Positions 20,613 through 25,480 of a DNA stretch of 63,111 nucleotides are shown in pieces. The stretch is taken from assembly GCA_025453555.1 (NCBI GenBank), contig JALOQC010000001.1, forward strand, positions 1 through 63,111, given 5' to 3'. The first letter of the stretch is position 1, and each line of letters begins with the position of its first letter. Both the position numbers and the translations under genes were made by a program. The notes beneath the pieces were generated by a model. That model saw only the letters and a list, made by a program, of their open reading frames with translations. It ran no database searches and had not been told where the DNA came from. Source of the stretch: Myxococcota bacterium (GTDB taxonomy: Bacteria > Myxococcota_A > Polyangia > Polyangiales > Houyiibacteriaceae).

Positions 20613-21449
20613 ATGAGCGTTGGGACCGAGCTCGCGCGGTCGCGAGGAACGGGTGTGCGTGGAGCACGTCCGACCGGTCGCCTCGTCGGTTCGACGGTCC
20701 CCGTGGCCAGCCTCGTGGCGGAAGAACGCGACAGGATGTGGGAGATCTTCCGCGTCTATTACCTCGACGTGCAGCGCGACGAGTTCGATCGTGATCTCGA
20801 CGAGAAGGATCACGTCATCGTCCTACGAGACGGCGGCGATCGGTCCATTCGAGGCTTCTCGACGCTGAAGGTCTACGATCAGAGCGTCGGCGGGCGACGG
20901 TTCCGCGCCATCTTCAGCGGCGACACCATCGTGGACGCTGCGTACTGGGGACAGAGCGCGCTGCACTGGACGTTCCTGCGATTCCTCGTCGCACAGAAGC
21001 TCCGCGCGGTCGGGACGCCGCTCTACTGGTTCCTCATCAGCAAGGGCTACAAGACGTACCTCCTCCTGGCGCGGAACTTCCCCGAGCACTGGCCGCGCCA
21101 CGATCGCGCGACGCCCACGGGTGCGCAGGCGATCCTCGACACGCTCGCGCGCGACCGGTACGGCGACGCGTACGACCCGAAACGCGGCGTGCTCTCGTTC
21201 CCGGAGCCCCACGGTCGCTTGCGCGCGTGCGTCGCGCCGCTGACCGAAGCGGAGCTCGCGCACCCGGACATCCGCTTCTTCGCCGAGCGCAACCCGGGTC
21301 ACGTCGACGGCGACGAGCTCTGCTGCCTCGGGCGCGTCGATCTCGGCTTCGTGCTGCGGGGCGCGCGGCGATCGATGATGCGGCCGCTCAAGCGCCCGCG
21401 TTCGCGGGACGGCCGGGCGCTGACTTCGTCGCAGGAGGTCGAGGTATGA
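20613..21449 (+). CDS. Conserved hypothetical protein, possibly a GNAT-fold acyltransferase-like protein
   Basis: ORF 20613..21449 has good coding statistics. Its stop overlaps the GH3 start (ATGA). The fold assignment is only my impression from the beta-strand/helix pattern around IRGFSTLKVY...FSGDTIVDAAYWGQSAL. Confidence 0.6.
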   Translation: MSVGTELARSRGTGVRGARPTGRLVGSTVPVASLVAEERDRMWEIFRVYYLDVQRDEFDRDLDEKDHVIVLRDGGDRSIRGFSTLKVYDQSVGGRRFRAIFSGDTIVDAAYWGQSALHWTFLRFLVAQKLRAVGTPLYWFLISKGYKTYLLLARNFPEHWPRHDRATPTGAQAILDTLARDRYGDAYDPKRGVLSFPEPHGRLRACVAPLTEAELAHPDIRFFAERNPGHVDGDELCCLGRVDLGFVLRGARRSMMRPLKRPRSRDGRALTSSQEVEV

Positions 21450-23110
21450 GCCGGGTGACGCTGGCCGCGCTCGGCCTCGGCTGGACCGCGTCGCTCGCGC
21501 CGGCTGCCGTGCGCTTCGCGCGTGCGGCTCGCGATCCCGAGCGCGCGCAGCTCGCGTACCTGAAGCGGCTCGTGCGCGACAACGCCGACACCTCGTACGG
21601 GCGCGCGCACGGCTTCGCGCGGGTGCGAGACCTCGCGAGCTGGCGCGCGAACGTGCCCGCGGTTCGCCACGAGGAGCTCACGCCTCACGTCGATCGCATC
21701 GCGCGTGGCGAGCCGAACGTGCTCACGCGCGAACCGGTGAAGATGCTCGAGCGTACGGGCGGCTCGACGAGCACCGGCAAGCTCGTCCCTTACACCGCGG
21801 GGCTGCTCGCGGACTTCGCGAGCGCGACGGGGCCGTGGCTCTTCGATCTGCACGCGCGCCATCCGCAGCTCTTCGGGACCTCGAGCTATTGGAGCGTCTC
21901 CCCGGTCGCGCGTCGTGACGAGCGCACCGAGGGTGGGCTGCCGATCGGCTTCGAGGACGACGCGGCGTACTTCGGCCCGCTCGAGCGCTTCGCGATCGAT
22001 CGTCTGCTCGCGGTGCCGGGACGGCTCGCGCGCGTGTCCGACGTCACGACCTGGCGCTTCGAGACGCTGCGCCGGCTCTTCGAGCGCGACGACCTCGGCC
22101 TCGTGAGCGTGTGGTCGCCGACCTTCCTCACGCTCTTGATGGAGCACGCGCGCGATCACCTCGACGATCTGTTGGCTTGCGTCGGTGGAGAACGCGCGCG
22201 CTCGATCCGAGACGGGCTCGCGCGCGAGGGCGAGTTCGTGGGCGAAGCGATCTGGCCGCGCCTCGCGCTCCTCTCGACCTGGACGGATGGTCCGAGCGCC
22301 GCGTTTCTGCCCGCCCTGCGGAGCTTCTTTCCGCGCACCACGATCCAGCCGAAGGGGCTGCTCGCCACCGAAGGCGTCGTCTCGTTTCCGCTCGGCGACC
22401 GGGAGGGCGCCGTGCTCGCGGTGACGAGCCACCTGATCGAGCTGGTCGACGTCGAGCACCCGGACGCGCCGCCGATCCTCGCGCACGAGGCCCGCGTGGG
22501 GGCGCGCTATACCCCGCTGTTGAGCACCCGCGGTGGGCTCTACCGCTACCGCCTGCTCGACGTCGTCGAGATCGTCGGCAAGCACGGCGCGCTGCCGCGG
22601 CTGCGCTTCGTCGAGAAGCTGGAGCGCGTCGCCGATCGTTTCGGCGAGAAGGTCCACGCCGCCCAGGTGCAGGACGGGCTCGCGAGGGCCGCGCGCGAGG
22701 TCGGTGTGCAGCCACGCTTCGCGCTCGTCGCGCCGGTCGACGCGCCCGCGCGCTACCGGCTCTACCTCGAAGCGGACGCGAGCGACGCGCAGCTCGCGCG
22801 GATGCGCGACGTGCTCGAAGCCCACCTCGCGACCGGCCACCACTACGCGTACTGCGTCCGCCTCGGGCAGCTCGCACCGATGGACGTCGTCCGCGTCCGT
22901 GATGGTGCGGGGACTTTTCTGCGCGAGCACGCCGCGCGCGGGCGCCGCGCGGGCGACGTGAAGCTCACCTGCCTCGATCCGCGCGTCGGGCCCGACGCCA
23001 TCGACTGGGATCGCGCGTTCGCTGGGCCGGACGACTCGGCGCGCGATTCGTCGGATCACTCGTCCGAGCGCGCGATCACGGAAGCCTCAGGAGCCCTCGC
23101 CGATGTGTAA
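21446..23110 (+). CDS. GH3 family protein (GH3 auxin-responsive promoter family; acyl-acid amido synthetase-like adenylating enzyme)
   Basis: This is the C-terminal 554 aa of ORF 21227..23110, starting at ATG 21446. GH3-family features are ERAQLAYLKRLVRDNADTSYGRAHGF, the P-loop-like LERTGGSTSTGKLVPYT, GLYRYRLLDVVEIVG and PRLRFVEK. Confidence 0.8.
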   Translation: MSRVTLAALGLGWTASLAPAAVRFARAARDPERAQLAYLKRLVRDNADTSYGRAHGFARVRDLASWRANVPAVRHEELTPHVDRIARGEPNVLTREPVKMLERTGGSTSTGKLVPYTAGLLADFASATGPWLFDLHARHPQLFGTSSYWSVSPVARRDERTEGGLPIGFEDDAAYFGPLERFAIDRLLAVPGRLARVSDVTTWRFETLRRLFERDDLGLVSVWSPTFLTLLMEHARDHLDDLLACVGGERARSIRDGLAREGEFVGEAIWPRLALLSTWTDGPSAAFLPALRSFFPRTTIQPKGLLATEGVVSFPLGDREGAVLAVTSHLIELVDVEHPDAPPILAHEARVGARYTPLLSTRGGLYRYRLLDVVEIVGKHGALPRLRFVEKLERVADRFGEKVHAAQVQDGLARAAREVGVQPRFALVAPVDAPARYRLYLEADASDAQLARMRDVLEAHLATGHHYAYCVRLGQLAPMDVVRVRDGAGTFLREHAARGRRAGDVKLTCLDPRVGPDAIDWDRAFAGPDDSARDSSDHSSERAITEASGALADV

Positions 23111-24248: not shown

Positions 24249-24256
24249 GGGTGGAC

Positions 24257-25480
24257 ATGGAAGCTCGAGGAATCGGACCGAAGAGCGGCGCCCGAGAGGT
24301 GGGTGGTGGGGACTCGCGCGAAGGCCCGCCGAGCGACGTGACCATCCGTCTCGCCCGACGGGACGAGCGAGAGGAGCTCGCGGCGGTCTATGCGAGCGTG
24401 ACGATGGACGCGGACCTGAAGCTCGCGGTCGAGCGCGACCCCGACTTCTTCGCGCTCTACGACATGGAGCACGAGCCGAACGACCAGCACGTGGTGGCGT
24501 TCGAGCGCGAAGGGCGCGTCGCGGGGGTGTCGGCGCTGCTCGGTCGCGAAGCGTACGTGGGCAAAGAGCGCATCCGCACCGCGTACTCGACCGACACCCG
24601 CTTCACCTCCGCGATCCGCGGAGGGCGCGTGCTCGGTCCGGCGATCGCGGGCTGCTTCTCCGAAGGTTCGGAGCGCCTGCGCGCCGAGCTCACGCACATG
24701 ATCCTCTTCGACGGCAACAAGGCCGCCTACAAGGCCTTCGTCGCGCGCGATCCGCGCTTCCCGAACAAGCCGCTCTGCCGTCCGCTCCGCTCGTTCGCGA
24801 TCACGAACGTTCTGCTCGCGCACCCGCGCCCCATCCGGAACACACCCTTCACGGTGACGCGCGGGACGCCGGCCGAGATGGAGGAGGTGCTCGCCTTCCT
24901 CGAAGCCGATCAGCGCACGCGCCCCTTCGGCGACGTGCTCTGCGAGGGCCGCTTCGCGCGGAGGCTCGAGCGTTGGCCCGGCTTCTCGGCCGAGAGCTTC
25001 TACCTCGCGCGCAGCGCGCGCGGCACCCTCGTCGGCTGCTTCGCGCCTTGGGACGCCCACCCCGTCAAGCGCTACCGCGTGCTCGAGTACCGCGGCTCGA
25101 TGAAGGCGGTGAAGCTCGGCTACGGGCTCGCCAGCAAGGTGCTGCGCTCGACGCCGCTGCCCGCGCCGGGCGAGCTCTTGCGCTACGTCTACGCCACGCA
25201 CCTCTGCGTGCCGAGCCACGACCCACGCGTGCTCGCCGCGCTCCTCGATCGCGCGTACGCGGATTTGCGCGGCGGTCCGCACTCGTTCCTGATGCTCTAC
25301 CTGGAGCACGACGATCCGCTCCGCCCCGCGCTCCGCGGCTACCTCGCGAGCGGCATGAACGCGACCTTCTACTCCGTCTGCACGCCCGACAGCCCGTGGG
25401 CCACCTACGACTTCGGCACCGACGCCAAGCCGGGGACTCCCGGCTACGTACGACCGGGCTTCGAGATCGCGCTCGCATGA
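24257..25480 (+). CDS. GNAT-like N-acyltransferase family protein (about 407 aa, probably two-domain)
   Basis: This is the C-terminal part of ORF 23246..25480, with ATG 24257 only 8 nt after the Rieske stop. It has an N-terminal GNAT-like pattern (IRLARRDEREELAAVY...VVAFEREGRVAGVSALL...). Confidence 0.65.
   Translation: MEARGIGPKSGAREVGGGDSREGPPSDVTIRLARRDEREELAAVYASVTMDADLKLAVERDPDFFALYDMEHEPNDQHVVAFEREGRVAGVSALLGREAYVGKERIRTAYSTDTRFTSAIRGGRVLGPAIAGCFSEGSERLRAELTHMILFDGNKAAYKAFVARDPRFPNKPLCRPLRSFAITNVLLAHPRPIRNTPFTVTRGTPAEMEEVLAFLEADQRTRPFGDVLCEGRFARRLERWPGFSAESFYLARSARGTLVGCFAPWDAHPVKRYRVLEYRGSMKAVKLGYGLASKVLRSTPLPAPGELLRYVYATHLCVPSHDPRVLAALLDRAYADLRGGPHSFLMLYLEHDDPLRPALRGYLASGMNATFYSVCTPDSPWATYDFGTDAKPGTPGYVRPGFEIALA

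Follow-up and report, generated by a model that had tools for sequence, protein, structure and literature searches.

A conserved GNAT-GH3-tandem GNAT gene cassette in bacteria and its probable role in amide-lipid biosynthesis

What does a bacterial GH3-family acyl-acid amido synthetase make when its gene is locked to those of two GNAT-fold proteins? The question is raised by a locus in a Myxococcota bacterium (NCBI GenBank assembly GCA_025453555.1). The window analyzed here is the whole 63,111-nucleotide stretch of contig JALOQC010000001.1, positions 1 to 63,111, with a G+C content of ~70%. The source is a Sandaracinus-like myxobacterium, and searches of its own genome covered the 8.3-Mb, 699-contig assembly. 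The closest public locus belongs to a metagenome-assembled genome (MAG) labeled "uncultured Sandaracinus sp.", whose GH3 is 95% identical to that of the window. Four co-directional open reading frames (ORFs) on the + strand (20613-25480), genes A-D, are of coding type by their third-position G+C content (0.86-0.92). An initial annotation made from the sequence alone described them as a GH3 gene (gene B) and a Rieske oxygenase gene (gene C) flanked by genes for two GNAT-like proteins (genes A and D). The gene boundaries that it gave are exact. Genes A and B share an ATGA stop/start overlap (gaggtATGAgcc, 21446-21449), genes B and C overlap by 8 nt (ATGTGTAA, 23103-23110), and an 8-nt spacer (24249-24256) precedes the ATG of gene D at 24257. 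Shine-Dalgarno-like GGAGG/GAGGG sequences lie upstream of the starts of genes A, B, and D (20613, 21446, and 24257). Genes A, B, and D are each single-copy in the genome, as judged by a paralogue search.

Gene B matched the three Pfam models for the N-terminal (PF03321, 3e-33, 115.8 bits), central (PF23571, 4e-12, 46.5 bits), and C-terminal (PF23572, 1e-7, 32.8 bits) GH3 domains. Each match passed the gathering cut-off of 23.6 bits, and the GH3 assignment thus withstood a hidden Markov model (HMM) search. Three nucleotide motifs, TGGSTSTGK (104-112, P-loop-like), ATEG (307-310), and YRYRLLD (366-372), are invariant in 20 members of the clade and align with those of plant JAR1. The clade profile aligned to the structures of JAR1, over both domains, and GH3.12 (E 5e-30), and in this comparison the adenylation motifs of gene B are intact. 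Judged by these features, gene B is predicted to encode a true GH3 adenylating amide synthetase with a complete set of nucleotide motifs. The clade has many homologues at ~50% identity, including those of Haliangium ochraceum, Sandaracinus amylolyticus, Polyangiaceae, Acidobacteriota, and Oligoflexia. The cultivable strains S. amylolyticus DSM 53668 and H. ochraceum DSM 14365 have homologues of this clade at ~52-55% identity. The initial annotation called bacterial GH3 enzymes largely uncharacterized. This no longer wholly holds, because one of them, OlsH, was characterized in 2025; it makes N-acyl ornithine from a free fatty acid, ATP/Mg2+, and ornithine (PMC12493201). OlsH is also the best-scoring named NCBIfam model for gene B (NF052613), at 45.5 bits versus a cut-off of 620 bits. 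When the window's own genome was scanned with this model, gene B was recovered in two pieces (25 and 22.7 bits) and there was no other match. In one Myxococcota genome, a GH3 gene with an internal TAG and no family-A partner (G249:C25:20559-21794) may be a decaying copy.

The two flanking genes had been called GNAT-like, a description that holds at the level of fold and finds no significant HMM match. Gene A had no match in Pfam or NCBIfam and no sequence match to a PDB chain. Gene D had no significant Pfam or NCBIfam match, including none to the N-myristoyltransferase (NMT) families NMT and NMT_C, and only a faint one to Acetyltransf_9 (E 0.099). Its sequence matches to PDB chains were marginal and confined to GNATs (E 0.01-0.1). 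Fold comparison was therefore needed, and AlphaFold2 (AF2) models of the products of 20613..21449 and 24257..25480 returned GNAT folds for both. For gene A, the model had a predicted local distance difference test (pLDDT) score of 88.3 and a predicted template modeling (pTM) score of 0.83. Foldseek gave 91 PDB matches at E<=1e-3, the best being GNATs of the AAC(2')/Eis type (E 1e-5, target template modeling (TM) score ~0.5, ~140 residues). The GNAT fold spans ~140 N-terminal residues and is followed by a well-conserved C-terminal extension of ~100 residues. The alignments of families A and D were built from syntenic homologues. In that of family A (39 homologues), a conserved W-G-x-x-A-L after strand 4 partially matches the canonical Q/R-x-x-G-x-G/A acyl-coenzyme A (acyl-CoA) loop. 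Other motifs of gene A are GFST (81-84), SGDT (102-105), WFLISKGYKTY (139-149), and NPGH..GDEL (227-236). The confident model points to a single GNAT with a conserved C-terminal extension, a call made at the fold level only. Family A is large; a profile search of 1.84 billion representatives recovered 2,703 at 50% identity, 973 of them at <=1e-30.

The gene D model was equally well formed (pLDDT 90.2, pTM 0.88). Its best Foldseek matches were NMTs (E ~1e-12, TM 0.55-0.6, identity 8-12%). NMTs and the tandem GNAT MAB_4324 aligned with it over the full length (TM 0.52-0.65), which places two GNAT domains in one chain. On the strength of this model, gene D would encode a tandem GNAT, nearest in fold to NMTs, which use long-chain acyl-CoA. 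The C-terminal carboxylate of an NMT is its catalytic base. Gene D ends in ...GFEIALA, and its homologues follow the pattern ...GFE[IM]AL[AVHS]; the terminal motif was found in 38 of the 44 examined, and all 38 stop exactly four residues past the conserved Glu/Asp. Such a fixed C-terminal length is consistent with an NMT-style carboxylate-base mechanism and is no proof of it. Members of family D are annotated "hypothetical" in every case, and a search with this family found no fusions inside its length window. An in-frame stop interrupts one homologue, from a Sericytochromatia MAG (L071:11497-12729), which is possibly a decaying copy.

The Rieske oxygenase call for gene C was borne out by matches to the Rieske (PF00355, 2e-23, 82.7 bits) and VanA_C (7e-10, 39.8 bits) domains. 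The cluster ligands in CLH...CPYH at 75-97 (C75/H77...C94/H97) and the mononuclear iron motif ENFMDVPHTVWVH at 184-196 (E184...D188..H191....H196) are intact. Gene C is predicted to encode an alpha-only Rieske/VanA_C monooxygenase with all its metal ligands in place. Its nearest solved structures are DdmC (dicamba O-demethylase, the top match), SxtT, NdmA, and KshA. No dedicated Rieske reductase or ferredoxin is encoded among the 12 genes of the local train described below, so gene C would need a housekeeping partner.

Conservation was examined at 83 GH3 loci, 37 of which have at least 8 kb on both sides of the GH3 gene (full-flank loci). Among all 83, family A was found at 67, family D at 47, and a Rieske gene at 33; homologues of genes E and F, which follow gene D in the window, were found at 10 and 8. 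At the full-flank loci, the counts were 32 for A, 27 for D, 20 for Rieske (17 lacked it), 14 for a desaturase, and 7 for a B12-binding radical SAM enzyme. Gene A lies directly upstream of the GH3 gene, its end falling between -60 and +150 nt from the GH3 start, in 45 of 63 loci. The synteny of A, D, and Rieske genes with GH3 is far beyond chance. Linkage was also seen across 251 Myxococcota genomes, of which 31 have A, 50 have any GH3, and 21 have D. GH3 was present in 19 of the 20 genomes with a strong A match (at least 200 bits), as opposed to 50 of 251 overall, and a strong A match was present in 14 of the 15 genomes with a strong D match. In these genomes, A, GH3, and D lie mostly on one contig, a few kilobases apart. 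The organism labels of the loci cover Myxococcota, Acidobacteriota, Planctomycetota, Bdellovibrionota, Gemmatimonadota, Beta- and Gammaproteobacteria, Fibrobacterota, Elusimicrobia, Sericytochromatia, Rhodothermia, and Chloroflexota; the trio co-occurs and clusters in at least 10 phyla. Because of the locus counts and the linkage in Myxococcota, the trio of A, GH3, and D forms the conserved core, to which a Rieske gene is often added without being obligate. The initial annotation proposed a four-enzyme unit. The tight coupling that it noted is real, but the core is smaller (Rieske at 20 of 37 loci) and the unit in the window is larger, genes A-D being the head of a train that runs to 37559.

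Two variants of this arrangement were noted. Four genomes of one Myxococcota genus (G006, G019, G031, and G055) have a distant family-A paralogue (~140 bits) and no GH3 match, which indicates that part of family A works without GH3. In Archangium/Myxococcaceae MAGs (L042, L044, L053, L058, L066, and L073), the trio stands beside genes for a class I methyltransferase, a β-lactamase-fold serine hydrolase, a DUF6901 protein, a histidine kinase, and a 697-residue lipoprotein-like protein, with no Rieske or desaturase genes alongside.

Gene fusions tie family A to GH3 and to membrane enzymes. Among the top matches listed for family A, A-GH3 and MMPL-A fusions each occurred in three clusters, and PAP2_3-FA_desaturase-A and JmjC/cupin-A fusions were also found. 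The contigs of four fusions were recovered; each gene translates to a fusion protein, and each adjoins a GH3 gene. In L084, the order is B12 radical SAM, MMPL-A, and GH3, followed by a 387-residue ORF, and a linker of ~14 residues joins the last MMPL helix to the A domain. The order is GH3, PAP2-desaturase-A, and Rieske in L085, and D, JmjC-A, and GH3 in L087. L086 reads FG-GAP, ASPIC, MMPL-A, PAP2, desaturase, GH3, Rieske, F, D, and a MacB-type ABC transporter; this unrelated lineage has the same families as the window (E, K, A, I, B, C, F, and D). In two of these loci (L085:1776-4082 and L086:10509-12235), a PAP2_3 lipid-phosphate phosphatase/phosphotransferase domain is fused to or lies beside the desaturase and family A. 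This association hints that the product, in some of its versions, bears a phospho-head group or has one removed.

The recurrent neighbors of GH3 are, by their predicted families, enzymes of a membrane-lipid type. FA_desaturase-family members were found at 23 GH3 loci (40 copies), B12-binding radical SAM enzymes at 14 (26 copies), and MMPL proteins at 5; methyltransferases and α/β-hydrolases also recur. NCBIfam matches were weak and mixed for the desaturases (DesA/DesB, CrtW, and GntB) and for the radical SAM enzymes (PhpK, HpnJ, and BchE), so no substrate can be inferred for either. At the full-flank loci, O2-type tailoring enzymes (Rieske or desaturase) alone occurred at 21, radical SAM alone at 4, both at 3, and neither at 9. 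The idea that O2-dependent and B12 radical SAM tailoring are mutually exclusive was considered and is unsupported by these counts (Fisher p = 0.21).

In the window, genes A-D head a train of 12 genes on the + strand (20613-37559; Table 1), and the ORF that follows (37759-39333) runs the other way. Most junctions are overlaps of 1-4 nt or gaps of 3 nt, with exceptions of 105 nt after gene D and 50 nt before the TauE gene (gene J). The nearest Sandaracinus MAGs (L004 and L005) have the entire train in the same order. We propose that these genes form one operon, with a three-enzyme heart of A (a small GNAT acyltransferase), GH3, and D. The intergenic region upstream of gene A is presumed, from its position, to hold the operon promoter and leader. 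Scans for a sigma-70 consensus, terminators, and Rfam families found nothing in this leader, and promoter, terminator, and Rfam scans of the operon 3' end were likewise empty.

Table 1. Features of the 12-gene train and its upstream region (window coordinates)
Feature	Position	Strand	Description	Basis or remark
Leader	20118..20612		495-nt intergenic region upstream of gene A	without a coding-type ORF
Gene A	20613..21449	+	278-aa predicted single GNAT-fold protein with C-terminal extension	AF2 and Foldseek
Gene B	21446..23110	+	554-aa predicted GH3-family adenylating acyl-acid amido synthetase	Pfam GH3, GH3_M, GH3_C
Gene C	23103..24248	+	381-aa predicted Rieske [2Fe-2S] non-haem-iron monooxygenase, alpha-only, VanA_C catalytic domain	Pfam
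Gene D	24257..25480	+	407-aa predicted tandem (double) GNAT, N-myristoyltransferase-like fold	AF2 and Foldseek
Gene E	25586..28468	+	RnfD/NqrB-like polytopic domain fused to FG-GAP/ASPIC β-propeller	Pfam; recurrent accessory
Gene F	28465..29094	+	209-aa membrane protein	no Pfam/NCBIfam match; recurrent accessory, 8/83 loci and L086
Gene G	29094..30083	+	α/β-hydrolase, possible esterase or O-acyltransferase	Pfam Abhydrolase_1 5e-25
Gene H	30080..30664	+	ICMT/PEMT-type integral-membrane methyltransferase	Pfam ICMT 1e-16, PEMT 1e-15
Gene I	30668..31798	+	membrane di-iron fatty-acid-desaturase-family enzyme	Pfam FA_desaturase 2e-21
Gene J	31849..32916	+	TauE/SafE (TSUP) anion permease	Pfam TauE 2.5e-22
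Gene K	32913..36734	+	MMPL/HAE3-type RND transporter, sterol-sensing-type domain	Pfam MMPL, Sterol-sensing; TIGR00921 HAE3 160 bits
Gene L	36738..37559	+	LolA-like periplasmic lipid/lipoprotein carrier, last of the train	Pfam LolA_like 2e-38

Several genes of the train recur elsewhere. The start of gene E agrees with the N terminus of a homologue. Homologues of gene E stand beside the GH3 cassette at 10 of the 83 loci, and the lineages in which they recur include Planctomycetota, Acidobacteriota, Elusimicrobia, and Gemmatimonadota; in L086, the equivalent is a pair of separate FG-GAP and ASPIC genes. Gene K extends ~500 residues beyond the usual end of its family (...YPLLLRAT) in a domain of no known family; in other lineages, this position is occupied by an in-frame fused family-A GNAT. 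Gene G is syntenic only in the two closest relatives. It scored 28 bits with the OlsI model (cut-off 385 bits), and generic esterases match it better. Gene H scored 74.6 bits with the NCBIfam model for isoprenylcysteine O-methyltransferase, below the cut-off of 160 bits.

Among known systems, the nearest is OlsH/OlsI(/OlsG) of Singulisphaera acidiphila, a pathway to ornithine lipids that depends on a GH3 enzyme (PMC12493201, J Biol Chem 2025). In both cases, a bacterial GH3 ATP-dependent amide synthetase shares an operon with lipid-modifying enzymes, among them an α/β-hydrolase and a membrane methyltransferase. The chemistry is likely to be the same: a carboxylate would be turned into an N-acyl amide with neither CoA nor acyl carrier protein (ACP). 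However, the window GH3 belongs to a different clade and the hydrolase is not OlsI, the GNAT-fold partners A and D are not described for OlsH operons, and the window operon adds oxygenases, desaturases, and an MMPL/LolA-like export pair. Myxococcota were unsampled in the GH3 tree of the OlsH paper (PMC12493201). A literature search for a GNAT-GH3-tandem-GNAT cassette found nothing beyond the OlsH papers.

Other systems resemble single parts of the cassette. The plant GH3 enzymes (JAR1, GH3.12/PBS3, and GH3.5/6/8) have the fold family and the three nucleotide motifs in common with gene B, but the relationship is distant and seen in profile E-values only. They work alone on hormones, whereas gene B is translationally coupled to a GNAT gene, is fused to one elsewhere, and sits amid membrane-lipid genes. 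Eukaryotic NMTs have the tandem-GNAT architecture predicted for gene D, the C-terminal length of which is strictly conserved; gene D nevertheless lacks a sequence match to the Pfam NMT families, and other tandem GNATs match it similarly. The OlsB/GlsB N-acyl amino acid synthases and bacterial ceramide synthase have a GNAT fold and make amide lipids by N-acylation of an amino acid or a long-chain base. This is the role that we propose for A and/or D. No relationship of either protein to these enzymes was detected at the HMM level, and A has a unique conserved C-terminal extension and GH3 coupling. The window operon ends with MMPL and LolA-like genes, as would suit MmpL/HpnN-type (HAE3/MMPL) lipid exporters that are coupled to biosynthetic enzymes, and elsewhere MMPL is fused in frame to family A. 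Gene K is not the HpnN or BstA equivalog, its scores being far under the cut-offs.

Our verdict is that the locus is a real, conserved, and uncharacterized variant of GH3-dependent amide-lipid biosynthesis. We infer that an amide-linked lipid is made, tailored by O2-dependent enzymes, and exported. The analysis itself shows which genes are present, with their folds and motifs, how the trio is conserved and co-occurs, and that A is physically fused to GH3, MMPL, PAP2-desaturase, and JmjC. Inference supplies the substrates, the sequence of reactions, the identification of the product as a lipid, and its export, and we consider this reading probable, though well short of secure; we hold any specific head group or order of steps with much less confidence. 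The initial annotation proposed that the unit makes and oxidizes an amide conjugate. This is a fair summary because both flanking proteins have GNAT folds, but the findings favor a lipid as the product over a hormone-like conjugate. Synthesis would take place at the cytoplasmic face of the inner membrane. GH3 would adenylate a carboxylate, most likely that of a free fatty acid or an N-acyl amino acid, and join it to an amine to give an amide, a step that we propose because of the OlsH precedent. A and D would then transfer one or two more acyl groups from acyl-CoA or acyl-ACP onto amino groups. The outcome would be a multiply acylated amide-linked lipid, either lipo-amino-acid-like or ceramide-like. 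The Rieske monooxygenase and the membrane di-iron desaturase may hydroxylate or desaturate this product. Gene H may methyl-esterify a free carboxylate, the group that ICMT naturally modifies on a lipidated amino acid. Transport of the product to the envelope would fall to the MMPL protein and the LolA-like carrier.

Several observations weigh against this proposal. Neither a substrate nor a product has been assigned to any protein of this GH3 clade, of family A, or of family D. The GH3 is far from OlsH (45.5 versus 620 bits), and gene G is not OlsI (28 versus 385 bits). Generic tandem GNATs (MAB_4324 and 3tt2) match gene D nearly as well as NMTs do, and the canonical GNAT acyl-CoA loop is poorly conserved in gene D. 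DdmC, SxtT, and NdmA, the nearest solved relatives of gene C, use small aromatic or alkaloid substrates. The desaturase-family neighbors weakly resemble GntB, a hydroxylase of free arginine, and need not act on acyl chains. Finally, no acyl-carrier, fatty-acid-synthesis, or amino-acid-supply gene was found among the conserved neighbors. A bolder version of the proposal takes the trio to be the synthase of an undescribed class of envelope amide lipids. These would be multiply N-acylated and amino-acid-based or ceramide-like, with a PAP2_3-dependent phospho-head in some lineages. They would derive from free fatty acids without CoA at the GH3 step and be channeled into the MMPL exporter, with D using an NMT-style carboxylate mechanism. 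We regard this combination as possible but doubtful.

The same genes can be read in other ways. The product could be a diffusible secondary metabolite or signal, for example an N-acyl amino acid, an antibiotic or surfactant resembling a lipopeptide, or an aromatic acyl-amino-acid conjugate, with the MMPL protein a plain efflux pump. The distribution is patchy and accessory-like (A in 31 of 251 Myxococcota genomes), the tailoring genes differ between loci, and the Rieske relatives use small molecules, all of which would suit such a compound. We nonetheless consider it unlikely: the in-frame MMPL-A and PAP2-desaturase-A fusions bind the chemistry to the membrane, a LolA-like carrier is encoded, and no nonribosomal peptide synthetase, polyketide synthase, or antibiotic-cluster-type regulator is present. 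The border with an exported lipid, which can also signal, is soft. Lipidation or modification of a protein or peptide, with D N-acylating a protein N terminus and GH3 attaching an acyl group or amino acid to a carboxylate or amine of a protein, draws on the protein NMTs as the best structural matches of D, on its fixed C terminus, and on the frequency with which GNATs modify proteins. No conserved gene for a small precursor peptide or target protein occurs among the recurrent neighbors, and the desaturases, radical SAM enzymes, PAP2, and MMPL proteins found there are typical of small lipids. To our knowledge, all GH3 enzymes known to date use small acids as substrates, and we judge a protein target to be very unlikely.

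Two further readings start from known pathways. If GH3 were OlsH, gene G (29094-30083) OlsI, and gene H (30080-30664) OlsG, the operon would be an orthologous ornithine-lipid pathway, and the same three enzyme classes do occur within one operon, with OlsH the top-scoring named NCBIfam model for the GH3. The OlsH and OlsI scores, however, fall far under the equivalog cut-offs, only the two closest relatives keep the hydrolase and methyltransferase in synteny, and the conserved partners are instead A and D, families for which there is no description in OlsH operons. Orthology is rejected on the curated cut-offs, and we assign it only a very slim chance. The remaining alternative, which we find the least credible, is a module for catabolism or detoxification of aromatic acids, in which a VanA/DdmC-like Rieske O-demethylase would act with GH3 conjugation (compare auxin and benzoate inactivation in plants) and GNAT acetylation. 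A dicamba O-demethylase as the top solved Rieske relative, the VanA_C domain, and the conjugation of aromatic acids by plant GH3 enzymes speak for it. Yet no gene for a ring-cleavage enzyme, reductase, or aromatic-acid transporter is present, and the Rieske gene is absent from 17 of the 37 full-flank loci. Such a module would also leave the MMPL, desaturase, and PAP2 links unexplained, including the fusion of A to lipid exporters and desaturases.

GH3 entered bacterial lipid biochemistry only in 2025, with OlsH, and the window clade is far from OlsH and locked to two families (A and D) for which Pfam and NCBIfam have no model. If the product is an envelope lipid, targeted lipidomics has overlooked a membrane component that is both common and taxonomically broad. 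If D builds such a lipid by NMT-style C-terminal carboxylate chemistry, this would be the first use of that mechanism in bacterial lipid building. GH3 enzymes form amides from free acids and need no CoA or ACP, which also makes them interesting for biocatalysis, and the A-GH3, MMPL-A, and PAP2-desaturase-A fusions offer concrete experimental handles.

Two features of the surrounding DNA are recorded here. Just 5' of the leader, an ORF on the + strand (18321-20117) is predicted to encode a protein with DUF4215 cysteine-rich repeats followed by three SRCR domains (1.8e-58), which are mainly metazoan. The region is also flanked by two paralogous Ser/Thr protein kinase genes on the - strand (12108-13676 and 37759-39333), of a kind typical of myxobacterial genomes.

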